This document shows positions 1 through 51,130 of a stretch of DNA of 64,000 bases, piece after piece. Source of the DNA: Escherichia coli (GTDB lineage Bacteria; Pseudomonadota; Gammaproteobacteria; Enterobacterales; Enterobacteriaceae); assembly GCF_009931435.1 (NCBI RefSeq), contig NZ_CP043414.1; one strand, 5' to 3'. Position 1 is the first letter of the stretch; every line of letters starts with the position of its first letter. A program made the position numbers and the translations under genes. The notes under the pieces were generated by a model. It had not been told where the DNA came from and ran no database searches. It was given only the letters and a program-made list of their open reading frames with translations.

Positions 1-2
1 TG

Positions 3-3000
3 ATGGCCTCCGACGGTACAATCTATAAACGACCACTGTTGTTGAAAGAGCTGAGTAACACCAGTGGTCGAAATTCTACGGCTGAAAACGGTGAAGATTG
101 GGCAAGATTCACCTGGACTCAGTCGGCTGACACCAGCATGAATGGGTGTGGTACAGATTATATGCCGACGCTGGATGGACTGAAGTCTTTGTATGACGCC
201 AATAGCGGTAATGTGATGAGTACGGTGCAGGGATGGCCGGTAAAAACGACCTATCTCACCAATACCCCGAGTGATACGCAAACAGGGAGCCGTTACTACA
301 ATGTGGTGCAACTGAATACTGGTGCAGTCTCACAAATCTCGACGAACACAGTCGTGCAACAAACCTGCCGCACAACGCCGTTGACGGCTGCTAGCCAGAT
401 TACGCTGGAGGCCTCAGACCCCTCGCAATTTGTCAGCATTGACAGTACGCTTAGCGCGATCAAAGTGCAGAAAGGCGATAGCGTGTCGATCCGCATTTCG
501 ACTAAAGATGCACAGGGGAATTTAGTCGGCAATACGCCGTTTGCCCTGAAACACGCTAACCCGGTCAATCGCCAAAATGTGGCGTCAACATCGCAGAAAG
601 TGTCGGTCACGACTGCGTCGGGTACGACGGTGGATACCACTGCATCGACCATTCTGTATGGCGTGACCGGGCCAGACGGAACCACCACGATGACACTCCG
701 ACAGGATGTGTCTACTGGACTCAAAACCGACTTTTATGCTCTGTTGAACGATACCGGCGTGTCGTCGAACACCTTGCCAGTGATCTTCACCGTCGTCACC
801 AGCCCGGATACACCGCTGGCGGCCAACTGGGGGCATATGGCGGAAACCTTTACCAGCAGCAAGGGCGTCACCTTCAAACGGCCTTTCCTCAAAGCTGAAC
901 TTTCTGGTGGTACGGCGGTAACGACCAATAATGAAGTCTGGTCGCGCCTGACAGCAACGGAGAAAACGGATGCCAGCAAGGCTGGGTGTGATGAGAGTTA
1001 TCAACCGCTGATGACTGACATGCAGGGGTTGTATGCGGATTACCCTAACAACCAGTTGGGCACGGTGCTCGGCTTGCCGACTTCCGCCGGGTATATGTGG
1101 GCCTACGACATGATGACGGTTTCTGGCAGCAGCTGGAGCAACCAGGCATATTCGCTCGTTAATGGTCAGACAGTTCAGGCATCGTCCAGTTATACGGCGG
1201 TAGTGATGTGCCTGGTGGAACCGCATACCGTTCCGGCGATGATAGAGATCACTTCAACAGCACAGGATGCGGCAAAAACGGTCAGCAATGGTGGTCGACC
1301 GAGCGCCGTAGCGAAGAAAGGTGAGACGATTCCGCTGACGGTGACCGTACGTGATAGCACCGGGAATCCGGTACCCTACGCCGACTTTACCCTCACGCGT
1401 GGAACGACGCTGGATCGCTCGAAAGCAACCGTTAACTCGAGTGCGGACGATCTTACCGTGAAGTCATTGATACCCGCGAACAGCGACGCTGGGCTGACGG
1501 CAAATGGGGCAAAAGTGCTCAGAACAACGGGCAGTGATGGCACAGCCACCTTTGAAGTGAGCCAGAATGCCACGACAGGTCTGGCGACACCGATAACCGT
1601 CACGCTGGCGCGCGATACAACCAAAACCGCCACGCTGGATGTTATCTACACGGTGATAACCAGCCCGGACTCACCGAGCGCGAAATTCTGGGGATACATG
1701 CCGGACACCTTTACCAGTTCGGCAGGCGTCACCTTCAGACGACCGCTCCTGAAAGCCGAAGCGACTTCAGGGTCATCGATTAGCACTAACGGCAATGGTG
1801 AAGTGTGGTCGTATATGAGCAACGTTCAAAATTTAACATCGACAGATTGTCCGCTGGAGAATCAACCGCGCAGTAATGAATTGTTGGATTTGTATAATGA
1901 TCATCCCAACGGCGCGATAATGACTGACCTGGGGCTGCCGATATATGCAGGCAAGTGGTGGGCTTATGATATGGTCATGCCGGATTTATATACGTGGCAG
2001 TATCAGACTGTCAGCCTGAGCGCAGGAGATATCGCGAAGAGCTCGGCAAACAACGCGCTGATGCTTTGCCTGGCGAAGCCGCATCCGGCAGGCGTCAGCG
2101 TAATGTTGACGTCATCCGCAATGGATAACGCCAGAACCCTCAGTAATGGCGGGCGACCCAGCGCGTCAGTGAAAAAAGGTAACCCACTGCCAATTGTGGT
2201 GACGGTCAAAGATCGTGATGGCAACCCGCTGGCGGGAGAGGCCGTTACGCTCAGGCGTGGTTCAGCGATGAGCCGTTCAGGAGCAGGAGTGGGCACGCCG
2301 GCAAATGCAATGACGTTGACAGAGTTGACACCTGTGTCGGCGGAGTTTTCTCTGGCCGCACACGATACGCAATGGCAAGGTTTCACCGGCAGTGATGGTA
2401 CGGCCACTTTCAATGTTGAACAGCCTGAGACCATCGGCCTGGCCATTCCGTTCACCGCTATACTGGCGCGAGATGTCGCAACTACCAGCGTCCTTGATAC
2501 GATCTTTACCGTCGTCACCAGCCCGGATTCCGCAATGGCGACCTACTGGGGCCATATGCCGGATACGGTAACGGCGGAAAACGGCGTGGTCTTTGAACGG
2601 CCTAAATTGTTGAAAGAGCTGCCGTCGAGCGCCGGAGTCAGTCAGGTGACGGATAACAATGAAGTGTGGCCGTTGTTTAAGGCAACGCAAAGGGAAGATA
2701 GCAGCCTCAGTCCTTGTGAAGCGGCACGTCGGCCATTGAGCGATGATTTATTATCGCTCTACGCGCGCTATCCGGGGAACACGCTGACGACTCAAATCGG
2801 CTGGTCTACGAAGTATGCATGGTGGGCACTGGATAACAAGCAGGGGAATGCCCTGGTTGTCAGTCTGAATAATGGTTTTGAGTCGTCGACGGCGAGTACG
2901 GGGTATCAGGGATGTCTGGTCAATCCCCGCGCGACCGTCTCCAGCGTCACGCTGACATCGACGGTGATAGATGCCACTACGCAGGCGGCGAAGGTAAAAA

Positions 3001-3761
3001 AAGGTGAAGCCGCGCCCGTCGTTGTTACCGTAAAAGACAGCGCCGGGAAGCCGGTACCGAATGTCGCTTTCACCTTAAAACGTGGTGATGCCGTGCCGCG
3101 TAACAGCGGGGCGACGTTGTATGGTGATGTTGCGGCGATGGATGATATGACGGTACAACCTGCCAGCGGGACGGTGGTAACGCTGGCTGACAGTGGGAAT
3201 ACGATCGACGGTGTGACAGGGGCGGACGGTACGGCAAGTTTTGCCGTTCGTCAGGATAATACGCCAGGATATAAAACGCCGTTGACGGTGACGCTGACGG
3301 ATAACGCCACAATAACGGCGACGCTGGATACGATTTTCACCGTGCCGACCAGCCCGAATGTCGCCACGGCGTATTTCTGGGGGCATATGGCGGATACCGC
3401 CACCGTAAGTGGCAAGACGTTACATCGCCCGCTATTGCAATCAGAGTTGCCGTCAGGGGCTACAGCGGCAGTAGCGCCAACGGTGAATAATGAAATCTGG
3501 GCGCTGGCACATGTGATCGATGCTCAAAAATGGGATATTGCAAAGCAGTGCGGTGACTTTAGTAGAGCACCGAGCTATACCGATTTACAGTCGTTACATA
3601 GCAGCTTTAGCGCGCTGGGATGGCCATCATCGATAAGCTTCCCCTATTTCTCTACCGATCGGGCCGGTTCGTTCTATTGTGGCATGGATGAAGGGGCGGG
3701 GACACAAAACTGCGGTATTCAGGCATCCAGTACTGCGGGGTTTGCAACCTGTTTCCAGTAG
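3..3761 (+). CDS. Large repetitive surface/adhesin-like protein, RatA/RatB-like; 5'-truncated by window edge (C-terminal 1252 aa present)
   Basis: Open frame runs from the window start. Four tandem modules of about 285 aa each begin near nt 781, 1641, 2501 and 3331 with a conserved motif (FTVVTSPD...WGHM.DT.T...GV.F.RP.L.KEL). Position next to xseA matches the Salmonella CS54 islet; the family assignment is from memory. Confidence 0.6.
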   Translation: MASDGTIYKRPLLLKELSNTSGRNSTAENGEDWARFTWTQSADTSMNGCGTDYMPTLDGLKSLYDANSGNVMSTVQGWPVKTTYLTNTPSDTQTGSRYYNVVQLNTGAVSQISTNTVVQQTCRTTPLTAASQITLEASDPSQFVSIDSTLSAIKVQKGDSVSIRISTKDAQGNLVGNTPFALKHANPVNRQNVASTSQKVSVTTASGTTVDTTASTILYGVTGPDGTTTMTLRQDVSTGLKTDFYALLNDTGVSSNTLPVIFTVVTSPDTPLAANWGHMAETFTSSKGVTFKRPFLKAELSGGTAVTTNNEVWSRLTATEKTDASKAGCDESYQPLMTDMQGLYADYPNNQLGTVLGLPTSAGYMWAYDMMTVSGSSWSNQAYSLVNGQTVQASSSYTAVVMCLVEPHTVPAMIEITSTAQDAAKTVSNGGRPSAVAKKGETIPLTVTVRDSTGNPVPYADFTLTRGTTLDRSKATVNSSADDLTVKSLIPANSDAGLTANGAKVLRTTGSDGTATFEVSQNATTGLATPITVTLARDTTKTATLDVIYTVITSPDSPSAKFWGYMPDTFTSSAGVTFRRPLLKAEATSGSSISTNGNGEVWSYMSNVQNLTSTDCPLENQPRSNELLDLYNDHPNGAIMTDLGLPIYAGKWWAYDMVMPDLYTWQYQTVSLSAGDIAKSSANNALMLCLAKPHPAGVSVMLTSSAMDNARTLSNGGRPSASVKKGNPLPIVVTVKDRDGNPLAGEAVTLRRGSAMSRSGAGVGTPANAMTLTELTPVSAEFSLAAHDTQWQGFTGSDGTATFNVEQPETIGLAIPFTAILARDVATTSVLDTIFTVVTSPDSAMATYWGHMPDTVTAENGVVFERPKLLKELPSSAGVSQVTDNNEVWPLFKATQREDSSLSPCEAARRPLSDDLLSLYARYPGNTLTTQIGWSTKYAWWALDNKQGNALVVSLNNGFESSTASTGYQGCLVNPRATVSSVTLTSTVIDATTQAAKVKKGEAAPVVVTVKDSAGKPVPNVAFTLKRGDAVPRNSGATLYGDVAAMDDMTVQPASGTVVTLADSGNTIDGVTGADGTASFAVRQDNTPGYKTPLTVTLTDNATITATLDTIFTVPTSPNVATAYFWGHMADTATVSGKTLHRPLLQSELPSGATAAVAPTVNNEIWALAHVIDAQKWDIAKQCGDFSRAPSYTDLQSLHSSFSALGWPSSISFPYFSTDRAGSFYCGMDEGAGTQNCGIQASSTAGFATCFQ

Positions 3762-5273: not shown

Positions 5274-5302
5274 TAGATGCAATCGGTTACGCTCTGTATA
5301 AT
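5274..5302 (+). promoter_or_regulatory. guaBA promoter region; -10 TATAAT at 5297-5302, possible PurR-like operator at 5277-5292
   Basis: TATAAT hexamer 44 nt upstream of the guaB ATG; ATGCAATCGGTTACGC resembles the PurR consensus with mismatches. Confidence 0.45.
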
Positions 5303-5345
5303 GCCGCGGCAATATTTATTAACCACTCTGGTCGAGATATTGCCC

Positions 5346-6812
5346 ATGCTACGTATCGCTAAAGAAGCTCTGACGTTTGACGACGTTCTCCTCGTTCCTG
5401 CACATTCTACCGTTCTGCCGAATACCGCTGACCTCAGCACCCAGCTGACGAAAACTATTCGTCTGAATATCCCTATGCTCTCCGCAGCAATGGATACCGT
5501 AACGGAAGCGCGCCTGGCTATCGCCCTGGCTCAGGAAGGCGGTATCGGCTTTATCCACAAAAACATGTCCATTGAACGCCAGGCTGAAGAAGTTCGCCGC
5601 GTGAAAAAACACGAATCTGGCGTGGTAACCGATCCGCAGACTGTTCTGCCGACAACCACCCTGCGTGAAGTGAAAGAACTGACCGAGCGTAACGGCTTTG
5701 CAGGCTATCCGGTAGTTACCGAAGAAAACGAACTGGTCGGCATCATCACCGGTCGTGACGTGCGTTTTGTTACCGACCTGAACCAGCCGGTCAGCGTTTA
5801 CATGACGCCGAAAGAGCGTCTGGTAACCGTGCGTGAAGGCGAAGCCCGTGAAGTTGTGCTGGCAAAAATGCACGAAAAACGCGTTGAAAAAGCGCTGGTG
5901 GTTGATGATGAATTCCACCTGATCGGCATGATCACTGTGAAGGACTTCCAGAAAGCGGAGCGTAAACCGAACGCCTGTAAAGACGAGCAAGGCCGTCTGC
6001 GTGTTGGTGCAGCGGTTGGTGCAGGTGCGGGTAACGAAGAGCGTGTTGATGCGCTGGTTGCCGCAGGCGTTGACGTTCTGCTGATCGACTCCTCTCACGG
6101 TCACTCTGAAGGCGTTCTGCAGCGTATCCGTGAAACTCGCGCTAAATATCCTGATCTGCAAATCATCGGCGGCAACGTGGCAACAGCTGCAGGTGCCCGC
6201 GCGCTGGCAGAAGCCGGTTGCAGTGCCGTTAAAGTGGGTATCGGCCCTGGTTCTATTTGTACTACCCGCATTGTTACTGGCGTCGGTGTTCCGCAGATCA
6301 CCGCCGTTGCTGACGCAGTAGAAGCCCTGGAAGGCACCGGGATTCCGGTTATCGCAGACGGTGGTATTCGTTTCTCTGGCGATATCGCGAAAGCTATCGC
6401 TGCTGGTGCAAGCGCGGTGATGGTAGGCTCCATGCTGGCGGGTACTGAAGAATCCCCGGGTGAAATCGAACTCTACCAGGGCCGTTCTTACAAGTCTTAC
6501 CGTGGGATGGGCTCTCTGGGCGCGATGTCCAAAGGTTCTTCTGACCGTTACTTCCAGAGCGACAACGCTGCCGACAAACTGGTGCCGGAAGGTATCGAAG
6601 GCCGTGTAGCCTACAAAGGTCGTCTGAAAGAGATCATTCACCAGCAGATGGGCGGCCTGCGCTCCTGTATGGGCCTGACCGGCTGTGGTACTATCGACGA
6701 ACTGCGTACTAAAGCGGAGTTTGTACGTATCAGCGGTGCGGGCATTCAGGAAAGCCACGTTCACGACGTGACCATTACTAAAGAGTCCCCGAACTACCGT
6801 CTGGGCTCCTGA
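5346..6812 (+). CDS. guaB: IMP dehydrogenase
   Basis: 488 aa from the ATG at 5346 ([13 protein letters not shown]...); the ORF track's upstream extension is rejected in favour of the conserved start. Confidence 0.97.
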
Positions 6813-6880: not shown

Positions 6881-8458
6881 ATGACGGAAAACATTCATAA
6901 GCATCGCATCCTCATTCTGGACTTCGGTTCTCAGTACACCCAACTGGTTGCGCGCCGCGTGCGTGAACTGGGTGTTTACTGCGAACTGTGGGCGTGGGAT
7001 GTGACAGAAGCACAAATTCGTGACTTCAATCCAAGCGGCATTATTCTTTCCGGCGGCCCGGAAAGCACCACCGAAGAAAACAGCCCGCGTGCGCCGCAGT
7101 ATGTCTTTGAAGCAGGCGTACCGGTATTCGGCGTTTGCTATGGTATGCAGACCATGGCAATGCAGTTGGGTGGTCATGTTGAAGCCTCTAACGAACGTGA
7201 ATTTGGCTATGCGCAGGTTGAAGTCGTAAACGACAGCGCACTGGTTCGCGGTATCGAAGATGCTCTGACAGCAGACGGTAAACCTCTGCTCGATGTCTGG
7301 ATGAGCCACGGCGATAAAGTTACCGCTATCCCGTCCGACTTCATCACCGTAGCCAGCACCGAAAGCTGCCCGTTCGCCATCATGGCAAATGAAGAAAAAC
7401 GCTTCTATGGCGTACAGTTCCACCCGGAAGTGACTCATACCCGCCAGGGGATGCGCATGCTGGAGCGTTTTGTGCGTGATATCTGCCAGTGTGAAGCCCT
7501 GTGGACGCCAGCGAAAATTATCGACGATGCAGTAGCCCGTATCCGCGAGCAGGTAGGCGACGATAAAGTGATCCTCGGCCTCTCTGGTGGCGTGGATTCC
7601 TCCGTGACTGCAATGCTGCTGCACCGCGCAATCGGCAAAAACCTGACTTGCGTATTCGTTGACAACGGCCTGCTGCGTCTCAACGAAGCAGAGCAGGTTC
7701 TGGATATGTTTGGCGATCACTTTGGTCTGAACATTGTTCACGTTCCGGCAGAAGATCGCTTCTTGTCAGCGCTGGCTGGTGAAAACGATCCGGAAGCAAA
7801 ACGTAAAATCATCGGTCGCGTTTTCGTTGAAGTATTCGATGAAGAAGCGCTGAAACTGGAAGATGTGAAGTGGCTGGCGCAGGGTACTATCTACCCTGAT
7901 GTTATCGAATCTGCCGCGTCTGCAACCGGTAAAGCTCACGTCATCAAATCTCACCACAACGTGGGCGGCCTGCCGAAAGAGATGAAGATGGGCCTGGTTG
8001 AACCGCTGAAAGAGCTGTTCAAAGACGAAGTGCGTAAAATTGGTCTGGAGCTGGGCCTGCCGTACGACATGCTGTACCGTCACCCGTTCCCGGGACCAGG
8101 GCTTGGCGTTCGTGTGCTGGGCGAAGTGAAGAAAGAGTACTGCGACCTGCTGCGCCGTGCTGATGCCATCTTCATTGAAGAACTGCGTAAAGCGGACCTG
8201 TACGACAAAGTTAGCCAGGCGTTTACCGTGTTCCTGCCGGTACGTTCTGTTGGCGTAATGGGCGATGGTCGTAAATACGACTGGGTTGTGTCTCTGCGTG
8301 CCGTCGAAACCATCGACTTTATGACCGCACACTGGGCACATCTGCCGTACGATTTCCTTGGTCGCGTTTCCAACCGCATTATCAATGAAGTGAACGGTAT
8401 TTCCCGCGTGGTGTATGACATCAGCGGCAAGCCGCCAGCGACTATTGAGTGGGAGTAG
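6881..8458 (+). CDS. guaA: GMP synthase (glutamine-hydrolysing)
   Basis: 525 aa [25 protein letters not shown]...; 68 bp downstream of guaB. Confidence 0.97.
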
Positions 8459-8500
8459 GACTGGCTATAAATAGTAAATTAAGCCTTTCCAACTAACTTT

Positions 8501-8532
8501 AATGCCAGTCAGTTTGCTGACTGGCATTTTTT
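8501..8532 (+). terminator. Intrinsic terminator of guaBA
   Basis: 12 bp perfect stem (AATGCCAGTCAG / CTGACTGGCATT), 4 nt loop, then a T6 run; 43 nt after the guaA stop. Confidence 0.75.
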
Positions 8533-8752
8533 ATTGGTTTTTCATTGAGTTTATGACTTCTATTTTTAAGGCCGTAACTCTATAACATCGGCTATGGCCT
8601 AAAGATAAAAGCCATTACCAACAAAATGGCGGTATTCCAAAACAGTCTAGCCGGAAGTGCTTACAATGAGATCGATCAAATCGACAAATGAGATACTGGC
8701 CGTTGTGAGCGCCCGGCAACCGTAGCCGTAGGGGGCGAATTTAATGGCTTTG

Positions 8753-9529
8753 TTATGAGCCATTGGTAATCGCACCCATGACAATTTGAAAGAGTTCTTC
8801 TGCTCGATTAGTGGAGCCAATTGCACCTCTTTCTCTCGCCATTCTCTTGTGCTCTGGTAGATCTGAGGACGCATAGATCATAAAAGGAGTTTTGTCTCCC
8901 ATTGCGCGTAATCTTTCTAGTAAGACATAACCTTCTTGCGCCCCTTCTTTGCGATCCATATCCGAAATAATAGCTGCAAACTTATTTGTTTTTAACAATT
9001 CCAAGGCTTCGTCAGTTGAAAGAGCTAAAGCGAACTCTATTCCCTGTGCCTCAAATGCCTGTCTTTCGTAAACATTATTTTCTGGTCGATCATCCACCCA
9101 TAAAATACGATTTCGCCATTTTTCATGCTTACTCTGCCGTTTTGCATTGGATACAACGTTGACGATTTTTTGCAGTTGGCTTTCAGTGACCCCTGCACTA
9201 TTTTCAGGCTGTTTTGCTGTGGCGGCGGTCAATGATGCTGCTGTAGCTATTTGCGCTCTTAAAAAATTATTTTCATCTTTGAAATCTGACGGCCCGTAAA
9301 GCTTATTATGATGTTTCGCAACAAGCCAGAGAAAGCCAAGAAACACAATGACAGGAAAGAAAACCATGAAATAAATAAGGGGAGCTATATGCTCTGATAA
9401 GCCATTACCAAAGCCAACGACGAAAGAGGCAAATCCATAAACGAGAACAATAAAGAGTGCAATGATACCAAGAGGGCTTTTGGTAAATCCTATTGCAGTT
9501 TCAGCAAATTTCTCTGGTTCCATATCCAT
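8753..9529 (-). CDS. Membrane-anchored receiver-like (CheY-fold) protein: two predicted TM helices plus C-terminal pseudo-receiver domain
   Basis: 258 aa ORF. Hydrophobic stretches at about residues 19-41 and 48-72. Residues about 141-252 align by eye to CheY (ILWVDD for the beta1 acidic pair, IISDMD for the phospho-acceptor Asp, IYASS for the Thr/Ser position), but no lysine at the K109-equivalent position. Low GC, about 40 percent. Confidence 0.55.
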   Translation of the reverse strand: MDMEPEKFAETAIGFTKSPLGIIALFIVLVYGFASFVVGFGNGLSEHIAPLIYFMVFFPVIVFLGFLWLVAKHHNKLYGPSDFKDENNFLRAQIATAASLTAATAKQPENSAGVTESQLQKIVNVVSNAKRQSKHEKWRNRILWVDDRPENNVYERQAFEAQGIEFALALSTDEALELLKTNKFAAIISDMDRKEGAQEGYVLLERLRAMGDKTPFMIYASSDLPEHKRMARERGAIGSTNRAEELFQIVMGAITNGS

Positions 9530-9616
9530 CCTCAGTATTGCTCATAACACAGTTAAGTTGTATTAGATCAGACCTGATCTGACAATTACCGGCTATTTAT
9601 AAAGGTATCTGTCAGA

Positions 9617-10012
9617 TTACATCTGGCTTAAGTTTTTCTCATCCCAGATGTGCTTTCCATCAAGTAACGTTTCCATCGGCGTTCGGCCACTGCACATTTT
9701 TCCCTGATGGGTTCGCTCATTATTATAGTGAACCCGCCATTCATCAAGAACCGATTGTAATGCTTCAAGATCATCATATAACTTTTTGCGGAACGTCACC
9801 TGATAAAACTCGTTCAGTATCGTTTTATGGAACTGCTCGCAGATACTATTGGTCTTAGATGACATTGCTTTCGTTTTCGTATGCTCAATATCATTTATCG
9901 CCAGATAAAGCTGGTAATCATGCTGCTCCACTTTACCGCAATCTCTTGGTGTATTGAGAGGCGGGTTATAAAATAAATACTGATACCATGAGGGCGGATC
10001 AATCGTGGTCAT
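9617..10012 (-). pseudogene. 3' remnant of a DDE (rve-type) transposase gene
   Basis: 131 aa ORF whose C-terminal part (SSKTNSICEQFHKTILNEF...HYNNERTHQG...GRTP) matches the integrase-core C-terminus typical of IS481/IS3-type transposases. The N-terminal two thirds of a transposase are absent and the ATPase gene abuts the truncation point. Confidence 0.55.
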
Positions 10013-10027
10013 AGTATCAGGTCATTC

Positions 10028-11542
10028 TCATGGGTTTATTGCGTCCCTGAAGATGACGTCGCTGACCATCTCTCCTCCAAGAAAATCGATCAACATATTC
10101 GAGTTTTCAAGGTCTTCTCTGGTCAATGCCCCGATTGCTTGTCCAACTACTACCTCCCAAGGTTTTTTACACTCAACAATAGCACAGACGAGTTGGCGGA
10201 TTTTCTTGATCTTCTTGTGACGCAATCGGTCGTTCGATTCCATTAGTTCTGCAATCAACGCTATGTCGGAGTGTGTTTGATTATCCTCAACCCATTTTTT
10301 GGCTGCGTCTACAAATTCCACCCATGTAACATTCATTACTGCAAGGCATGAATCAGTCAAAAGAACATTTTCGATAGCGTAGCATCGTAAGCGATAGCGT
10401 TTAAGAGGTAGGCGATGTTCAAGCGACTTGTTGATTACACCATCGCCATCACGAAGGGAAAAGGCGATTGGATTGTCATAGAGTGTACTAAGGAGGTCTA
10501 CGCAAAAATCCTCAAGTTGACTCTGTTGATCTACGCTACCTGCTAGTACGGGAAAGATTTTTATTCGACCCTGTGATGTTCTGGCCGCTTGTTGCCAGAC
10601 TCGTTCGTCGTCCTCTCCTTCCAAAATTAATGCAGCGTCTTCGCTAAGAGAAAGCGATAGGGGGTGCCCGAAGAATGGTGCAATCTTTCGAAGTTCATCG
10701 CTGGCCGGTATCAATGAGATTTCATTTACTGCAAAGCTCTTCGTGCCGATTGATACATATGGGGAGGCGGCAAGAGAACAGACGAGCGGGGAACTATGGG
10801 TGGATAAGCATATGGCAATACTGTTCGCGTGTGTTCTAAATTCGTCGAGCATACTGATTATCAGCTTGCCCAGTCTAGCTTGGAGGTCGGGGTGCAGATG
10901 TACATCAGGCTCATCGAGGAGGAGTACGTTGAATTTCTCCGGATCTATTGTGTCGAAGAAATAGATGATTTCCGCGGCTAATGCAACCGCTTCCGATTCA
11001 CCGCTACTGATTTGGGCCGGATCAATAATCTGACCATCTACAAGTGATCGAAACTCATAATCGACATTACCCATCTCGAGCGAAATGTTAGTGAGAAGCT
11101 GATTAATTTTACTTAATCGGTCTGTCTGAAAGTTTCGCGTTAGATCAGTTCGAATTTCCGGAGTATTGGCAAGTCGACGTAAGTAAAGCGTCTCGGCCTC
11201 GCGAAATAGCATAGCCGATGCAGCTTTGAAGTTGCTTGCCTGATTAACTGCCCGAGTGTGCCTCAGCCATTCGGGGTTGTCGCTCATATTTGTGAGGACG
11301 GTGCCATCACGCTTGAACGATCCTGCTCGCTCTGGACTTACATACCGGACATAAAATTGCTGCTTGTTCTGGCTGATTGTTTGTTCGATATCGCGAAGGA
11401 AACGACTTTTTCCCGCACCGTTTCGGCCCATAATTATGTTGATGTTGTTTAAGCCGTAAAGTCGGCCAATTTGGCTAGATAACTCGCTTACTTTCAAGAT
11501 TGTAACTCCATTTCTTGTTGCCACATACGGTAACAAATACAC
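10028..11542 (-). CDS. ABC-type ATPase fused to TOPRIM-like nuclease motif (OLD-family / Gabija GajA-like), candidate anti-phage protein
   Basis: 504 aa ORF. Walker A GRNGAGKS (residues 39-46, nt 11405-11428), signature-like SSGESE (179-184), Walker B VLLLDEPD (206-213), H-loop-like STHS (247-250), TOPRIM-like Glu in LILEGEDDE (E308) and DxD in LRDGDG (D365/D367). Start codon uncertain: GTG at 11542, or a TTG at residue 16 preceded by GGAG. About 43-45 percent GC. Confidence 0.6.
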   Translation of the reverse strand: MYLLPYVATRNGVTILKVSELSSQIGRLYGLNNINIIMGRNGAGKSRFLRDIEQTISQNKQQFYVRYVSPERAGSFKRDGTVLTNMSDNPEWLRHTRAVNQASNFKAASAMLFREAETLYLRRLANTPEIRTDLTRNFQTDRLSKINQLLTNISLEMGNVDYEFRSLVDGQIIDPAQISSGESEAVALAAEIIYFFDTIDPEKFNVLLLDEPDVHLHPDLQARLGKLIISMLDEFRTHANSIAICLSTHSSPLVCSLAASPYVSIGTKSFAVNEISLIPASDELRKIAPFFGHPLSLSLSEDAALILEGEDDERVWQQAARTSQGRIKIFPVLAGSVDQQSQLEDFCVDLLSTLYDNPIAFSLRDGDGVINKSLEHRLPLKRYRLRCYAIENVLLTDSCLAVMNVTWVEFVDAAKKWVEDNQTHSDIALIAELMESNDRLRHKKIKKIRQLVCAIVECKKPWEVVVGQAIGALTREDLENSNMLIDFLGGEMVSDVIFRDAINP

Positions 11543-11800
11543 TAACTGAATAGGTGCGTTGATGCCTCATTTTGTTCACATCTATGTTGAAATTAGTGAT
11601 GTGAACGAGCTAAGGACTCTATTAGGAGTAGAGCGGCCATATTGTTCGTCTGAACAGCCTGTAGACAGCTCTATTATTGAGACATGGTATTTTTCGTGGT
11701 ATCTGCTAAGTAGTTTGTTTCAAGGCATTGATTTATTTATATTTTATTTTCTCATTGATAGCTGAGTGGGAATGATTTGATCCCTGCACTATGAATTAGC

Positions 11801-11830
11801 AAAACCCTCTGTTACTACAGAGGGTTTTTT
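11801..11830. terminator. Bidirectional hairpin terminator downstream of yfgI, at the islet boundary
   Basis: AAAA-CCCTCTG-TTACTA-CAGAGGG-TTTTTT; the A-tract/T-tract flanks allow termination in both directions. Confidence 0.55.
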
Positions 11831-11868
11831 ATACTCACGAATCATAGGATTGAAGTTACTGACATCGC

Positions 11869-12408
11869 TTAGTTAAACCAGCTGTCCGATTTGTTCTCTT
11901 CTGCTTTGCCCACGCTTTTCATCAGATCGCGACCGCCTTCAGTCATATTCCTGTTTGCGTCAGCTTCAGATTGCACCACATCGGTTTGCGCAGCTTTGTG
12001 CTTCAGTTCCTGATCGATAAATTCGTTTTCTCGCTTAACGCGGGCTTCTTCTTTCGCCAGCGCCAGTTTTTGTTTCTGAATCTCTAAGCTGCGTAGCTCA
12101 TCTTCATAACTTTGATCGCGTTTCTTGTCCGCAGTGGCTTCGGCGTCCAGTTTATCCTGACGAGCTTTCTTATTTGCCGCTGCCGTTGCCGCTCTTTTGT
12201 TAGCGGCGGCCTGGGCGTTTGCGCGACGTTGCTTCTCTTGCTGGATTTCCCTGTTGCGCTCCGCGACCCATTCGTCATGCTGCCTTTGCTCTTCATTTTT
12301 ACCTTGCTGTTCCGCTTCTGCGACAGCAGAGAGTTGATCCTGCAATGATGAGGCGATAGCCGGATAGCTTAAGGAGGCTAAGATGGCGCAAAGAAAAACT
12401 TTCTTCAT
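11869..12408 (-). CDS. yfgI: Periplasmic protein YfgI
   Basis: 179 aa, signal peptide MKKVFLCAILASLSYPAIA, charged K/E/Q-rich body; synteny with yfgH. Confidence 0.85.
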   Translation of the reverse strand: MKKVFLCAILASLSYPAIASSLQDQLSAVAEAEQQGKNEEQRQHDEWVAERNREIQQEKQRRANAQAAANKRAATAAANKKARQDKLDAEATADKKRDQSYEDELRSLEIQKQKLALAKEEARVKRENEFIDQELKHKAAQTDVVQSEADANRNMTEGGRDLMKSVGKAEENKSDSWFN

Positions 12409-12423
12409 GACTCCTCCTGATTA

Positions 12424-12942
12424 TTAGCTCTTTTCAGGACATTTGGTATTTGGCTGAATACGCGTTTCGTTATACGTCGTGGTAATAACAACGGCTAAAC
12501 CTGTCGTAAACTGGCACTCTTTACCCACCTGGGTGGAGGTATACACTTTGGTGCCTTCCTTATACGTTAGAGAAACACCTTCCACTAAGGTTTTATCATT
12601 CACCATAGAACCTGCTGCCGCGCCAACAGCTCCGCCGCCAACTGCACCTGCCGTCGTTCCGGAATTGCTGCCAGACCCCACGTTGTGGCCGATAACACCG
12701 CCAGCGACTGCACCAATAAGCGCGCCGAAGGCTTGTGCGTTTCGTTTATTTTGGGAGTTGTCTACGGCAACTTTTGCGGGAAGAATGGAAATAATATTAA
12801 CGGTTTTAGTTTCTTGTTTGGTATTCAGTTGATCGGTTTGATAAACATCGGCGGCATGATCATCAGCATTTGACTGGCATCCTGCCAGAGTGAATGACGC
12901 TAACATTGCCACAGGCAGAAGACATTTTTTAAATTTCATCAC
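12424..12942 (-). CDS. yfgH: Outer-membrane lipoprotein YfgH (glycine-zipper)
   Basis: 172 aa, lipobox LAGC, Gly-rich zipper GALIGAVAGGVIGHNVGSG. Confidence 0.85.
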   Translation of the reverse strand: MMKFKKCLLPVAMLASFTLAGCQSNADDHAADVYQTDQLNTKQETKTVNIISILPAKVAVDNSQNKRNAQAFGALIGAVAGGVIGHNVGSGSNSGTTAGAVGGGAVGAAAGSMVNDKTLVEGVSLTYKEGTKVYTSTQVGKECQFTTGLAVVITTTYNETRIQPNTKCPEKS

Positions 12943-13252
12943 TATTCCTTGTTATACACATTACGAAAAATAAGACATTTAAGATCATCAAAAGAGGAAA
13001 GTAAATGTATTGCGTATAAAGGAATAGATTAAATTTATTAAAATTCATGTGGAAAATAATTTATAAAAATACATCATTAAAACATATGTATTAATTTTAT
13101 ATTTATTTCGCAGCCAAACAGGATAAACATCAGTCAGGACAAAGACGTAAAATTTAAGATGAAAGAATATCTGCCGCTTTGATAATCTCAAAGAGCAACT
13201 GCATCCGACAGCGAGGTGCCGTTATGTTCAGTGAAGGTGGAGAAGGTAACCG

Positions 13253-13444
13253 CTAACGTTGTACCGGTGATTCGACGGAGAGTGTGGATTGTTGAGCTTC
13301 TTTTTTGCTCTGATGGTGCTGCCAGGCACCGACGGACGAGTAGATAAAGCGGCCAAAGAAGAAGATAAAGCTGATGAGCAGTACGATACGGGTCATGCGA
13401 CTGTTAAATCGGTGTCGTTTTCGCATACTGGTTGCCTGACTCAC
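13253..13444 (-). CDS. yfgG: Small membrane protein YfgG
   Basis: 63 aa ORF with one hydrophobic helix; conserved position divergent from pdeF. Confidence 0.7.
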   Translation of the reverse strand: MSQATSMRKRHRFNSRMTRIVLLISFIFFFGRFIYSSVGAWQHHQSKKEAQQSTLSVESPVQR

Positions 13445-13654
13445 AAAAGGTTCCTTGAAGTATGTCCCACGCCGTGGACGGTACTTACATTAAGGCACAA
13501 CAGGACAAAATGGTCAATTCTTCGTTATGTAAAAAAGCGTCAGTGGATACATATTTTAATGTTATGGAAGTTAATTTAATTATTTACAATGATGATGTAA
13601 TAATGATGAATTAACATGATAAACGTAATAATTCATTAATCAGGGTTATTTTGT

Positions 13655-13668
13655 TTGATATATATCAA
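13655..13668 (+). promoter_or_regulatory. FNR/CRP-type box TTGAT-ATAT-ATCAA upstream of pdeF, with candidate -10 TAGAAT at 13690-13695
   Basis: Perfect TTGAT-N4-ATCAA palindrome centred about 40 bp upstream of the predicted start site, a class II arrangement. Confidence 0.5.
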
Positions 13669-13795
13669 TTGGAACTTTCATATGACACTTAGAATCAATG
13701 CTCTCTATAGTGATGAATAATCATCATTCGAAGTCAGGTGGGATGCCTGTCTGAATACACCTCCTTCACGATGTGGGGGATTCTGCTGAGCATCT

Positions 13796-16039
13796 ATGAA
13801 ACTGAATGCAACCTATATAAAAATACGTGATAAATGGTGGGGGCTTCCGCTGTTCCTGCCTTCTTTCATCTTGCCCATTTTCGCCCATATTAATACTTTC
13901 GCGCATATTTCTTCCGGTGAGGTTTTTCTCTTTTACCTGCCTTTGGCACTGATGATCAGCATGATGATGTTTTTCAGCTGGGCGGCATTGCCAGGGATCG
14001 CCTTAGGGATTTTTGTCCGCAAATATGCAGAGCTGGGTATTTACGAAACGCTCTCATTAACAGCTAATTTTATTATCATTATCATTCTCTGTTGGGGCGG
14101 TTACAGGGTCTTTACTCCCCGGCGTAACAACGTTTCACATGGTGATACCCGTTTAATTGCCCAGCGTATATTCTGGCAGATTGTATTTCCTGCAACGCTG
14201 TTTCTAATACTTTTCCAATTTGCTGCGTTTGTTGGATTACTGGCGAGCAGAGAAAATCTGGTCGGCGTCATGCCTTTTAACCTCGGGACCTTAATCAATT
14301 ATCAGGCCTTACTGGTGGGCAATCTGATTGGTGTTCCGCTGTGCTACTTCATCATTCGGGTGGTGCGAAATCCGTTTTATTTACGCAGCTATTATTCGCA
14401 ATTAAAACAGCAAGTTGATGTCAAAGTCACCAAAAAAGAGTTCGCGCTCTGGCTACTGGCATTAGGTGCGTTGTTGTTGCTGTTATGCATGCCGTTAAAT
14501 GAAAAAAGCACGATTTTCAGCACCAATTATACCTTGTCATTATTGCTACCCCTGATGATGTGGGGAGCCATGCGCTATGGTTATAAGTTGATTTCGCTGC
14601 TCTGGGCGGTCGTGCTGATGATCAGCATCCACAGCTATCAAAATTACATTCCCATTTATCCTGGCTATACCACGCAACTGACCATAACCTCCTCCAGTTA
14701 TCTGGTATTCTCTTTTATTGTCAATTATATGGTTGTACTGGCAACCCGTCAGCGAGCGGTAGTCAGACGCATTCAGCGGCTTGCGTATGTGGACCCGGTG
14801 GTTCATCTGCCAAATGTTCGCGCCCTGAATCGCGCGTTGCGTGATGCCCCCTGGTCTGCGCTTTGTTATTTACGCATCCCCGGCATGGAAATGCTGGTTA
14901 AGAACTATGGCATCATGCTACGGATTCAATACAAGCAAAAACTTTCTCACTGGCTGTCACCATTGCTGGAACCGGGTGAAGATGTTTATCAGCTTTCGGG
15001 TAACGATCTCGCGCTGCGACTGAATACAGAATCGCACCAGGAGCGCATTACCGCACTGGATAGCCATCTCAAGCAATTTCGTTTCTTTTGGGATGGAATG
15101 CCGATGCAACCGCAGATTGGCGTCAGTTACTGCTATGTGCGCTCGCCAGTGAATCATATCTACTTACTGCTGGGAGAGCTAAATACGGTCGCCGAACTTT
15201 CCATCGTGACCAACGCCCCGGAAAATATGCAGCGTCGCGGGGCAATGTATTTGCAACGCGAATTGAAAGATAAAGTCGCGATGATGAATCGGCTACAGCA
15301 GGCGCTGGAACACAACCATTTTTTCCTGATGGCCCAGCCGATTACCGGTATGCGTGGTGATGTCTACCATGAGATCCTTCTGCGCATGAAAGGTGATAAT
15401 GATGAACTGATCAGCCCCGACAGCTTCTTGCCGGTCGCGCACGAATTTGGTTTATCGTCGAGTATCGACATGTGGGTCATTGAGCATACGCTGCAATTTA
15501 TGGCTGAAAACAGAGCGAAGATGCCCGCTCACCGTTTTGCGATTAATCTGTCGCCAACCTCGGTATGTCAGGCTCGTTTTCCCGTTGAAGTCAGTCAGCT
15601 GCTGGCTAAATACCAGATTGAAGCGTGGCAACTTATTTTTGAAGTCACCGAAAGTAATGCGCTGACCAATGTTAAGCAGGCGCAAATCACCTTGCAGCAT
15701 CTTCAGGAATTAGGCTGCCAGATTGCGATTGATGATTTCGGCACCGGCTACGCCAGCTATGCGCGGCTTAAAAATGTGAATGCCGATCTCCTTAAAATTG
15801 ACGGCAGTTTTATCCGCAATATTGTGTCAAATAGTCTGGATTACCAGATAGTGGCGTCGATTTGTCACCTGGCGCGAATGAAGAAAATGCTGGTAGTGGC
15901 AGAGTACGTTGAAAACGAAGAGATCCGCGAGGCGGTGCTTTCTTTAGGGATAGATTATATGCAGGGTTATCTTATTGGTAAGCCGCAACCGTTAATTGAT
16001 ACGCTGAATGAAATCGAACCCATTCGCGAAAGTGCCTGA
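13796..16039 (+). CDS. pdeF: Cyclic-di-GMP phosphodiesterase PdeF (MASE1 - degenerate GGDEF - EAL)
   Basis: 747 aa; multi-TM N-terminus; EAL-domain motifs in the C-terminal part. Confidence 0.92.
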   Translation: MKLNATYIKIRDKWWGLPLFLPSFILPIFAHINTFAHISSGEVFLFYLPLALMISMMMFFSWAALPGIALGIFVRKYAELGIYETLSLTANFIIIIILCWGGYRVFTPRRNNVSHGDTRLIAQRIFWQIVFPATLFLILFQFAAFVGLLASRENLVGVMPFNLGTLINYQALLVGNLIGVPLCYFIIRVVRNPFYLRSYYSQLKQQVDVKVTKKEFALWLLALGALLLLLCMPLNEKSTIFSTNYTLSLLLPLMMWGAMRYGYKLISLLWAVVLMISIHSYQNYIPIYPGYTTQLTITSSSYLVFSFIVNYMVVLATRQRAVVRRIQRLAYVDPVVHLPNVRALNRALRDAPWSALCYLRIPGMEMLVKNYGIMLRIQYKQKLSHWLSPLLEPGEDVYQLSGNDLALRLNTESHQERITALDSHLKQFRFFWDGMPMQPQIGVSYCYVRSPVNHIYLLLGELNTVAELSIVTNAPENMQRRGAMYLQRELKDKVAMMNRLQQALEHNHFFLMAQPITGMRGDVYHEILLRMKGDNDELISPDSFLPVAHEFGLSSSIDMWVIEHTLQFMAENRAKMPAHRFAINLSPTSVCQARFPVEVSQLLAKYQIEAWQLIFEVTESNALTNVKQAQITLQHLQELGCQIAIDDFGTGYASYARLKNVNADLLKIDGSFIRNIVSNSLDYQIVASICHLARMKKMLVVAEYVENEEIREAVLSLGIDYMQGYLIGKPQPLIDTLNEIEPIRESA

Positions 16040-50002: not shown

Positions 50003-51130
50003 TCAGGCGACGAGCTGTTCCATGATACGTTGATACATACGGGCAAGTAGCTGCAGGTCGGCAGCGTTCACACATTCATTAATTTTATGAATAGTGGCAT
50101 TGACCGGCCCGAGTTCCACCACCTGCGCCCCCATGCGGGCAATAAAGCGCCCGTCGGACGTTCCGCCTGTGGTCAGTAGCTGCGGTTTAATTTCATTATA
50201 GTGCTCAACCGCGTTAACGACCGCATCCACCAGTTTGCCGCGCGCGGTCAAAAATGGCTGCCCGGAAAGCCACCAATCCACCGTATAACGCAGTTGATGT
50301 TTTTCAAGCAGGGCAAGCACCTGCGCTTTGATCATCTCATCCGTCAGTTCGGTGCTGAAGCGGAAGTTAAACTGCACAAACAGTTCACCCGGAATAACGT
50401 TGTTACTGCCCGTTCCCGCCTGAATATTGGCAATCTGCATACTGGTCGCCGGGAAGAATTCATTACCCTGATCCCACTCAATAGCCACTAATTCATTAAG
50501 GAAAGGTGCTGCGCGATGTACCGGGTTGTCAGCCAGATGCGGGTAGGCTACATGCCCCTGCACGCCATGAATGGTGAGGTTGCAGGTTAACGATCCGCGA
50601 CGACCATTTTTCACCACGTCACCAACCACTTCGATGCTCGATGGTTCGCCGACCAGGCAGTAATCGAGACGCTCATTACGCGCCATTAACGCTTCGACGA
50701 CTTTTACCGTACCGTTGTGGGCACTGGCTTCTTCATCAGAAGTGATCAGAAATGCCAGTCGGCCTGTATGGTTGGGATGTTGCGCGACAAAACGTTCTGC
50801 TGCTACCACCATCGCCGCCAGTGAGCCTTTCATATCTGCCGCACCACGCCCGAACAACATGCCGTCACGAATGGTTGGTTCAAACGGCGGATTAATCCAA
50901 CGGTCGGCGTCGCCAGGCGGTACCACATCGGTATGCCCGGCAAAGGCTAACGTTTCGCCCTGCCCACGCCACGCCCAAAAGTTTTGCGTATCGGCAAAGT
51001 CCATGCGTTCAACGGTAAAACCGATCGCCTGCAGACGTTCGATCATGATTGCCTGACATCCCGCATCATCAGGGCTTAAGGATGGGCGGCGAATAAGCTG
51101 CTGGGTCAGCTCAATAACCGGGCACGACAT
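50003..51130 (-). CDS. dapE: Succinyl-diaminopimelate desuccinylase
   Basis: 375 aa M20 peptidase family, [24 protein letters not shown]... Confidence 0.96.

Follow-up and report, generated by a model that had tools for sequence, protein, structure and literature searches.

What is the AT-rich DNA that separates guaA from yfgI in this strain of Escherichia coli, how did it come to lie there, and what might its genes do? We analysed a window of 64,000 nucleotides (the whole stretch presented here, from contig NZ_CP043414.1), in which guaB (5277-6812, + strand) and guaA (6881-8458, +) are followed by three open reading frames (ORFs) on the minus strand and then by yfgI (11869-12408, -), yfgH, yfgG, and pdeF. 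The three ORF-level features of the intervening islet are an ATPase-TOPRIM-like ORF, a C-terminal fragment of an IS481 transposase (IS is short for insertion sequence), and an ORF for a protein with two transmembrane helices and a receiver domain, which we will call the receiver protein. We conclude that the islet is a new occupant, resembling a cis-mobilizable element (CIME), of a known integration site and that it carries two uncharacterised single-gene cargo candidates. In the explanation that we favour, to which we give a probability of about 0.72, it is an integrase-less remnant flanked by attachment (att) sites, or CIME, at the guaA site of the GIsul2 and PIME elements, with two stand-alone units of cargo.

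The initial annotation had described about 3.3 kb between guaA and yfgI that is missing from the K-12-type gene order, and it had suggested a check for presence or absence by BLAST. In a megablast search with 8300-12000 against 5,426 complete E. coli genomes, every genome but one had the flanks and just 27 had the full segment, so the segment is indeed accessory. All 27 copies are at least 99.5% identical and have the same three features. The low GC content was confirmed as well: the islet (8455-11771) has 42.9%, whereas guaBA has 54.1% and the window as a whole 51.7%. The islet's value falls in the lowest 0.3% among windows of 3,317 bp. Because the segment is rare among E. coli genomes and its GC content is low, the accessory AT-rich islet is real. 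ORFs and profile searches also agree with the initial annotation about the three minus-strand elements and the IS scar (a 393-bp fragment of IS481). Among the ORF-level features there is no integrase, excisionase, relaxase, type IV secretion system, or transfer gene.

Borders of the islet and the guaA attachment site

The borders of the islet are a 9-bp direct repeat, TGAGTGGGA, which contains GAGTGGGA and which occurs three times in the window (0.27 copies would be expected by chance). Because these repeats bound the insert, the inserted DNA is 8455-11771 (3,317 bp) and not 8533-11800, as was first proposed. And because the border repeat contains GAGTGGGA, the att core at the 3' end of guaA, the insertion lies within the last codons of guaA and not between native terminators. 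This core was established experimentally for the integrase of GIsul2 and for GIsul2-family integrases (PMC9376610), and the GIsul2 integrase can also excise and integrate a CR2-sul2 unit that lacks an integrase, acting through the att cores (PMC9376610). A preprint from 2026 describes about 1,100 related elements, named PIMEs, that integrate at guaA and that require IncP helpers (bioRxiv 10.64898/2026.01.12.698999). (The third exact copy of TGAGTGGGA is on the minus strand at 50472-50480, far from guaA, and may be due to chance or may be a secondary site.)

Strain 163 and the closely related clone D i14 provided empty guaA-yfgI sites for comparison. In the alignment with these two genomes, the empty site reads ...ATT GAG TGG GAA TGA, followed by a 30-nt spacer and one bidirectional terminator. 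The window instead has ATT GAG TGG GAG TAG GACTGG at the left junction and ...TTGATAGC TGAGTGGGA ATGATTTGA at the right junction; an attB restored by excision would read ATTGAGTGGGAATGA. The comparison with the two empty sites thus yields a clean insertion of 3,317 bp. The first four bases of the island, GTAG at 8455-8458, rebuild GAG TAG, which is the last codon and the stop codon, and GuaA still ends in ...IEWE. Immediately upstream of the core there are synonymous differences (GCGACTATT vs. GCTACCATT), for which we considered and rejected an origin from the element: they are a lineage polymorphism that is also present in an empty-site B2 strain.

The two hairpins that were initially taken to be the native convergent terminators of guaA and yfgI do exist, each with a 12-bp stem (8501-8528 and 11801-11828) and a z score of about -6. 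But the empty site has one shared bidirectional terminator, which corresponds to 11801-11830. The left hairpin (8501-8532) is missing from the empty site and is present in the copies of the islet from Klebsiella and Kluyvera; it is island DNA that, judging from its sequence, now serves to terminate guaA. At the other end of the islet, the region upstream of the ATPase gene (11560-11762) can be aligned across E. coli, Klebsiella, and Pseudomonas aeruginosa. The element-side arm of attR (TTTTAT..TCT..TTGATAGCT abutting GAGTGGGA) is kept from E. coli and Klebsiella to Pseudomonas. In broad terms, the initial description of a small islet of the mobile or defence type stands, but its placement between terminators does not.

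The elements that use this site are much more elaborate than the islet. PIMEs were searched for by their tyrosine integrase, alpA, replicase, and trbJ/trbL, and their defence systems sit in accessory regions that adjoin the transfer module, at the end that is distal to int (bioRxiv 10.64898/2026.01.12.698999). We found no alpA, replicase, or trb genes in 8455-11771. Since these are missing, along with an integrase and a relaxase, the islet is an occupant of the site and not a member of the GIsul2/PIME group.

Two units with separate distributions

The islet is a mosaic of two single-gene units that are distributed independently of each other: the receiver gene with the IS481 fragment, and the ATPase gene with the conserved attR arm. 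By blastn against fetched loci, 8444-9942 (the receiver gene and the IS481 fragment) is 90% identical to a guaA islet of Kluyvera sichuanensis that has no ATPase, and it is equally similar to a metagenomic contig (L085). Because the Kluyvera islet has the IS481 fragment without the ATPase, we assign this fragment to the receiver unit. The other part, 9954-11776, comprises the ATPase gene with the hairpin downstream of it, the region upstream of it, and attR; it shares 74% identity with a guaA islet of P. aeruginosa and 83% with an islet of Enterobacter bugandensis. The P. aeruginosa islet contains the ATPase only, in 1.93 kb between two GAGTGGGA cores at guaA. The ATPase gene also adjoins guaA in Vreelandella glaciei. 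Both units are present at guaA in Klebsiella pneumoniae GCA_051076125.1 (L079, 4499-9084), where the islet is 96-98% identical and where an IS3-family element splits the ATPase gene into pieces of 214 and 274 amino acids. In E. bugandensis (L006, 11455-13948), a different gene of 302 amino acids lies between the ATPase gene and guaA; its product is HEPN-like, with an RNNVAH (Rx4H) motif and a weak match to RTasHEPN from PADLOC.

Other genomes show how such units come to stand side by side. Two P. aeruginosa genomes (L003 and L004) have the same chromosomal flank and ATPase unit, and next to these comes a hybrid att site. On the left, this site consists of the end of a Trb-type conjugative element; on the right, it matches the left end of the ATPase unit exactly. 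The Trb-type element has inserted itself between guaA and an ATPase unit that was already there. (The last gene of this element, at 11885-15910, encodes a 1,341-amino-acid protein with a helix-turn-helix domain and a STAND NTPase, nSTAND5/AAA_16.) In the metagenomic contig, GAGTGGGA connects the end of an integrative and mobilizable element (IME) to the receiver unit at the unit's left end. This IME encodes TrbL, a relaxase, and a KAP NTPase for which the PADLOC candidate PDC-S49 is a match (E = 4e-141). These hybrid sites are instances of tandem accretion. Among the 27 E. coli carriers of the islet, no such tandem was seen. CIMEs are elements that keep attL and attR and have lost the genes for integration and transfer (Pavlovic et al. 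2004, as cited in PMC5704250). The islet is flanked by attL and attR and has no integration or transfer genes of its own, and it fits this definition because, in other genomes, an IME or an integrative and conjugative element (ICE) has integrated beside each of the units via a hybrid att site. Under our explanation, the islet would be unable to move alone and would be excised or co-transferred only together with an element that supplies a matching integrase.

Several observations count against this account of the islet's origin. At the internal junction (9942-9954), we looked for an att core and did not find one. The breakpoint of the IS481 fragment at this junction is identical to that in Kluyvera (7570-7594 of L084), but the right-hand partners are different: in E. 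coli and Klebsiella the breakpoint is followed by the ATPase unit, and in Kluyvera and the metagenomic contig it is followed, after about 24 bp without an att core, by the native terminator. In alpha-proteobacteria the ATPase genes are not at guaA, and we did not find an att core near them in these loci. A search for both proteins in plasmid and phage collections gave no phage record and no true plasmid record. (The sole match was PLSDB NZ_CP134663.1, a 4.9-Mb, islet-bearing record from E. coli that is evidently a chromosome filed among plasmids.) Finally, we found no complete progenitor with an int gene and with either of the two genes inside it, and because of this an origin by decay is inferred.

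Alternatively, the units might never have been parts of larger elements. They could be minimal cassettes, flanked by att sites, that ride on GIsul2 or PIME integrases supplied in trans, with guaA as a platform on which cassettes are stacked. The movement of the integrase-less CR2-sul2 unit (PMC9376610) is a precedent for this, and single-gene units bounded by cores do occur in P. aeruginosa. The conservation of the ATPase unit's attR arm across genera, the different single genes (receiver or HEPN-like) that are found beside the ATPase in different genera, and the existence of hybrid att sites would also be expected. But the junction within the islet has no core, the attR core of E. bugandensis has decayed to TGGTGGGA, and the core on the right side is absent in Kluyvera. 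The decayed and missing cores suggest fixation rather than active traffic of cassettes, and we consider this alternative to be improbable. We view with similar reserve the broader proposal that the guaA att site is a stockpile of single-gene, att-flanked units that GIsul2 and PIME integrases shuffle in trans, much as in an integron, and that both cargo genes are new single-gene systems for immunity or conflict.

Predicted functions of the two cargo proteins

We think that the ATPase protein is a member of a compact, unnamed, stand-alone family of ATPase-TOPRIM proteins that resembles OLD and PARIS, as judged from its motifs and a structure model. Its start is the TTG at 11497, as in RefSeq (WP_000868467); the alternative GTG start at 11542 would give a protein of 504 amino acids. 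In the family alignment, the motifs of an N-terminal ABC ATPase are invariant (Walker A, GRNGAGKS; signature, SSGESE; Walker B, LLLDEPDVHLHP; and H-loop, THS). So are residues of a predicted TOPRIM or DUF4435-like domain (E293-G-x-D296-D297, R349-D350-x-D352, and E376-N377), which would provide the catalytic glutamate and the DxD motif of OLD proteins. These domains are followed by a conserved C-terminal helical domain, KPWEVVVGQAIG. The family is sharply delimited: at E ≤ 1e-30 there are about 294 cluster representatives (at 50% identity), nearly all of 470-500 amino acids (about 485). A few members are larger: P0332 (1153 amino acids) has an N-terminal cysteine protease domain of the CE clan, similar to Ulp1 and RickCE, before the ATPase-TOPRIM body, and P0346 and P0352 (about 880 amino acids) have a large unassigned insertion or extension.

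More distant comparisons are consistent with this assignment, as the initial annotation had anticipated in calling the protein an OLD-like ATPase with a TOPRIM domain. In Pfam, the N-terminal half matches AAA_15 (41.4 bits) and AAA_21 (38.6 bits). When the family profile was aligned to P2 Old with hhalign, the match ran from Walker B through TOPRIM (probability 92.7%, E = 4e-7) and paired the Walker B, the H-loop, LiVEGEDD with LLVEGKTE, and the DxD and EN motifs. A structure model built from a diverse alignment had a mean predicted local distance difference test score (pLDDT) of 88.9, and its TOPRIM region has the order beta-alpha-beta-alpha-beta. (An earlier AlphaFold model, from 24 close homologues, had a pLDDT of 67.5, and its Foldseek result was set aside.) The top matches in Foldseek were GajA, the OLD protein of retron Eco8, and Thermus OLD; these are full-length but have low template modelling scores. 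For GajA and Eco8 OLD, E is 1e-7 and the scores are about 0.3, this low because the domains pack differently and because insertions are missing. In 45 loci, the ATPase gene had no recurrent neighbour except for guaA in Gammaproteobacteria, and because of this we consider the protein to be stand-alone, similar to class 1 OLD or to PARIS.

Given these relatives, an anti-phage role for the ATPase protein is plausible, and the most likely mechanism, by analogy, would be a block to phage or foreign DNA by a TOPRIM nuclease under the control of ATP. The protein would act alone, in the manner of OLD, GajA, or PARIS: the ABC head would act as the sensor, of a trigger or of the nucleotide state, and nucleic acid would be cut by the TOPRIM domain (E293, D350, and D352). 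The result would be the exclusion of phage or foreign DNA, probably by abortive infection.

Not all of the evidence favours a role in defence. Neither islet protein could be assigned to a defence family. The best PADLOC match for the ATPase protein is PDC-M01A, at 62 bits, and it covers the ATPase head only; further modest matches (AriA and AriAB, NsnB, PtuA, GajA, and AbiLi) cover the head as well. The AriAB model scores 50.8 bits over residues 85-396. No model from NCBIfam comes near its cut-off. For the C-terminal half, the only Pfam match is a weak one to DUF4435 (11.3-13.5 bits, E = 0.06-0.29), and among 27 relatives DUF4435 was found in three at E ≤ 1e-3 (5.9e-6 at best) and in 10 at E ≤ 0.1. 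A profile of the C-terminal domain alone did not match any solved structure by sequence. The protein is also unusually conserved for a defence gene, with 75-80% identity among Enterobacteriaceae, Pseudomonas, Rhizobiales, and Sphingomonadales and about 35% identity in Cyanobacteria, Bacteroidota, the candidate phyla radiation, and Actinomycetota.

These observations raise the possibility that the ATPase-TOPRIM protein is not anti-phage at all but has some other use for the mobile element or the cell, for example in excluding plasmids, in repairing DNA or RNA, or when elements compete for the guaA site. Besides the high conservation across classes, the consistent position of the gene at the attR end of guaA islets, its occurrence in alpha-proteobacteria as a lone chromosomal gene with ordinary neighbours, and its absence from phage genomes would fit such a role. 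On the other hand, its closest relatives by structure and sequence are all defence ATPases or nucleases (GajA, Eco8 OLD, AriA, PtuA, and P2 Old), as an accessory gene it is patchily distributed (in 27 of 5,426 E. coli genomes), and it co-occurs with other defence-like cargo. We therefore regard a role outside of defence as rather unlikely.

The receiver protein is the better lead of the two cargo genes. Its N-terminal part has two transmembrane helices, and a linker joins these to a receiver domain at the C-terminus. This domain matches Response_reg from Pfam (E = 2.9e-7), and the family profile matches solved receiver domains (E = 6e-8). D146, D147, and D190 are invariant in the family alignment and the transmembrane segments are conserved, but the usual conserved lysine is not evident in the alignment, which makes the protein's competence for phosphorylation uncertain. 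It has no output domain, as the remainder is the two transmembrane helices and the linker, and none of the six types of gene context has an adjoining histidine kinase. The family is widespread, with 1,955 matches at E ≤ 1e-5; one cluster of 155 member sequences (P0121) is named by its sources as a response regulator of Klebsiella pneumoniae. Besides the unit that stands alone at guaA in Kluyvera and the one behind an IME in the metagenomic contig, we found the gene in an island of Dickeya with primase and AlpA, at another site in Dickeya, and as a cassette in the superintegron of Vibrio cyclitrophicus, where a VCR-type attC starts at its stop codon. By analogy, this recurrence as lone cargo would be typical of genes for conflict or defence, and the protein could be an independent membrane effector or sensor. 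We found no PADLOC match for the protein from the window, receiver-domain cassettes are not mentioned in the preprint on integron defence, and the text of the PIME preprint does not describe an ATPase, a TOPRIM protein, or a response regulator among its tested systems. In the Dickeya island (L083, 5212-7359), a 715-amino-acid protein with a C-terminal SEC-C motif is encoded directly upstream of the receiver gene. It has weak PADLOC matches, to PDC-S12 and E2, at its extreme C-terminus and may be a partner in that context only.

Could the ATPase-TOPRIM and the membrane receiver instead form one two-gene defence system, with the receiver as the sensor or membrane effector? The two genes are adjacent, on the same strand, and inherited together in E. 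coli and K. pneumoniae. Also, the ATPase's best PADLOC match is PDC-M01A, and one member of the receiver family weakly matches PDC-M01B (E = 0.028). However, the IS481 fragment and a terminator hairpin lie between the genes. At guaA, Kluyvera has the receiver unit but no ATPase; conversely, P. aeruginosa, Vreelandella, E. bugandensis, and all 45 other loci have the ATPase but no receiver gene with it. We rejected the assignment of the pair to the PADLOC candidate PDC-M01: PDC-M01B matches just one of 14 receiver-family members and does not match the protein from the window even at E = 10. Because their distributions are independent and each is found alone at guaA in other genera, the two genes are not a system. 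The initially proposed pairing is an accident of accretion, and a two-gene system is largely refuted by the distribution and very unlikely.

DNA matches to copies of IS481 span 9549/9554 to 9942/9946, and the 131-amino-acid ORF at 9617-10012 extends beyond the IS481 fragment into the ATPase unit. The match to transpos_IS481 from NCBIfam covers positions 206-283 of 284, or the last third of the transposase. RefSeq marks the fragment as a pseudogene that is missing its N-terminus, and we found neither a complete IS481 DDE transposase nor the terminal inverted repeats. The fragment is presumably non-functional, and it is an internal passenger that cannot have delivered the islet. Delivery by transposition (driven by IS481 or otherwise), with the 9-bp direct repeat at the borders as a target-site duplication and the internal IS481 fragment as its trace, is refuted in practice, since the repeat is a known integrase core at a known site, in four other genera this core borders guaA inserts of unrelated content, the ends of the islet have no terminal inverted repeats that we could find, and the IS fragment, which is truncated and lies inside the islet, does not occur in islets with just the ATPase.

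The features of the islet and its borders are listed in the table. The hairpin that directly follows the ATPase gene's stop codon is kept in P. aeruginosa and E. bugandensis and is the probable terminator of that gene, judging from its position and predicted fold.

Table. Features of the islet between guaA and yfgI, in coordinates of the window.
Feature	Position	Strand	Remarks
attL core TGAGTGGGA	8446-8454	+	left copy of the direct repeat, within the last guaA codons
Island-borne intrinsic terminator	8501-8532	+	12-bp stem, 4-nt loop, T tract; -19.3 kcal/mol, z -6.2
Receiver gene (two transmembrane helices, receiver domain), 256 aa	8753-9523 (or 9529)	-	RefSeq WP_000433086, 'response regulator'
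IS481-family 3' fragment, 393 bp	9554-9946	-	C-terminal part of transposase, N-terminus missing
Hairpin directly after the ATPase stop codon	9978-10020	-	-16.1 kcal/mol, z -3.75; kept in P. aeruginosa and E. bugandensis
ATPase-TOPRIM/DUF4435-like gene, 489 aa	10028-11497	-	RefSeq WP_000868467, 'AAA family ATPase'
Conserved region upstream of the ATPase gene	11560-11762	-	ends in the element-side attR arm TTTTATTTTCTCATTGATAGC
attR core TGAGTGGGA	11763-11771	+	right copy of the direct repeat, then the displaced native guaA end (ATGA) and the native spacer
Native bidirectional guaA/yfgI terminator	11801-11830	.	sole terminator of empty sites, outside the islet; -17.8 kcal/mol, z -6.1

Two other stretches of the window are worth a remark. 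The AT-rich intergenic DNA around yfgG (12800-13250 and 13400-13850, with 30-33% GC) is native regulatory DNA outside the islet, because the genomes with empty sites have it. Positions 1-3740 of the window lie inside a very long gene upstream of xseA, which the closest RefSeq genome labels as an 8-kb 'adhesion domain-containing protein'.

Comparison with known systems

Our results do not overturn current ideas but refine the annotation of this locus. They point to the guaA 3' end in E. coli as a place where remnants of the GIsul2/PIME type that have no integrase persist. Such remnants could be captured again by incoming elements, which bears on the tracing of defence and resistance cargo between Enterobacteriaceae and Pseudomonas. 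The islet also offers two cleanly delimited single-gene candidates with their native regulatory regions. The ATPase-TOPRIM family would rank among the smallest stand-alone proteins of the OLD/PARIS type, which would make it a convenient model. The receiver gene has no defence annotation, yet it is found in four kinds of cargo hotspot (the guaA islet, the end of an IME, the primase/AlpA island of Dickeya, and a superintegron cassette of Vibrio).

The receiver protein shares with response regulators a receiver domain with an acidic pocket and a phospho-acceptor aspartate; it differs from them in having no adjoining histidine kinase and no output domain. As for the ATPase protein, its best full-length matches in Foldseek, GajA and the OLD effector of retron Eco8, have the same order of ATPase and TOPRIM domains; unlike these, it has no GajB helicase and no reverse transcriptase or non-coding RNA nearby.

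PARIS consists of AriA, an ABC ATPase, and AriB, a TOPRIM nuclease of the DUF4435 family, and fusions into a single gene have been described (PMC9122126; PMC11464382). Anti-restriction proteins of phages activate PARIS, which then cleaves tRNA of the host. The detection rule for PARIS is based on domains, with more than 32 bits for AAA_15 or more than 27 bits for AAA_21, and a threshold of 27 bits for DUF4435 (PMC9122126). The ATPase protein passes the ATPase thresholds, but its scores for DUF4435 (11-13.5 bits) are below the threshold. It is also much shorter than the models of fused AriAB (694 positions), and the profile of its C-terminal domain does not find AriB by sequence.

The OLD family (P2 Old and Thermus OLD) is similar in having an N-terminal ABC ATPase and then a TOPRIM domain with the catalytic glutamate and DxD motif. 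Like the stand-alone OLD proteins of class 1, the predicted nuclease is encoded by a single gene with no helicase, GajB, or retron partner, and the 45 loci gave no recurrent neighbour of the kind that marks classes 2-4 (a UvrD-like helicase, GajB, or a retron's reverse transcriptase and non-coding RNA). In contrast to OLD, it is about 100 amino acids shorter (489 vs. 586), its identity to them is about 12-21%, it has its own C-terminal helical domain, and it matches no curated model.

The islet as a whole is like the CIMEs that are summed up in PMC5704250 in that it has attL and attR flanks and no integrase or transfer genes, and in that related genomes have a tandem ICE or IME joined via a chimeric att site. 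CIMEs were described from Firmicutes and at other target genes, whereas the islet is at guaA in Gammaproteobacteria. The islet is also set apart by its tiny one-gene units, two of which are fused with the loss of the internal att site, and its mobilisation is predicted from sequence.

The islet can also be compared with the other occupants of its site. It has no int, alpA, rep, or trb/tra genes and no resistance genes, it is 3.3 kb long rather than 15-22 kb, and its cargo genes differ from those reported for PIMEs. But it shares with GIsul2 and the PIMEs the point of insertion, the core GAGTGGGA, and a guaA gene that is repaired by the element (PMC9376610; bioRxiv 10.64898/2026.01.12.698999), and the CR2-sul2 unit provides the precedent for an integrase-less unit that is moved via its att cores (PMC9376610).

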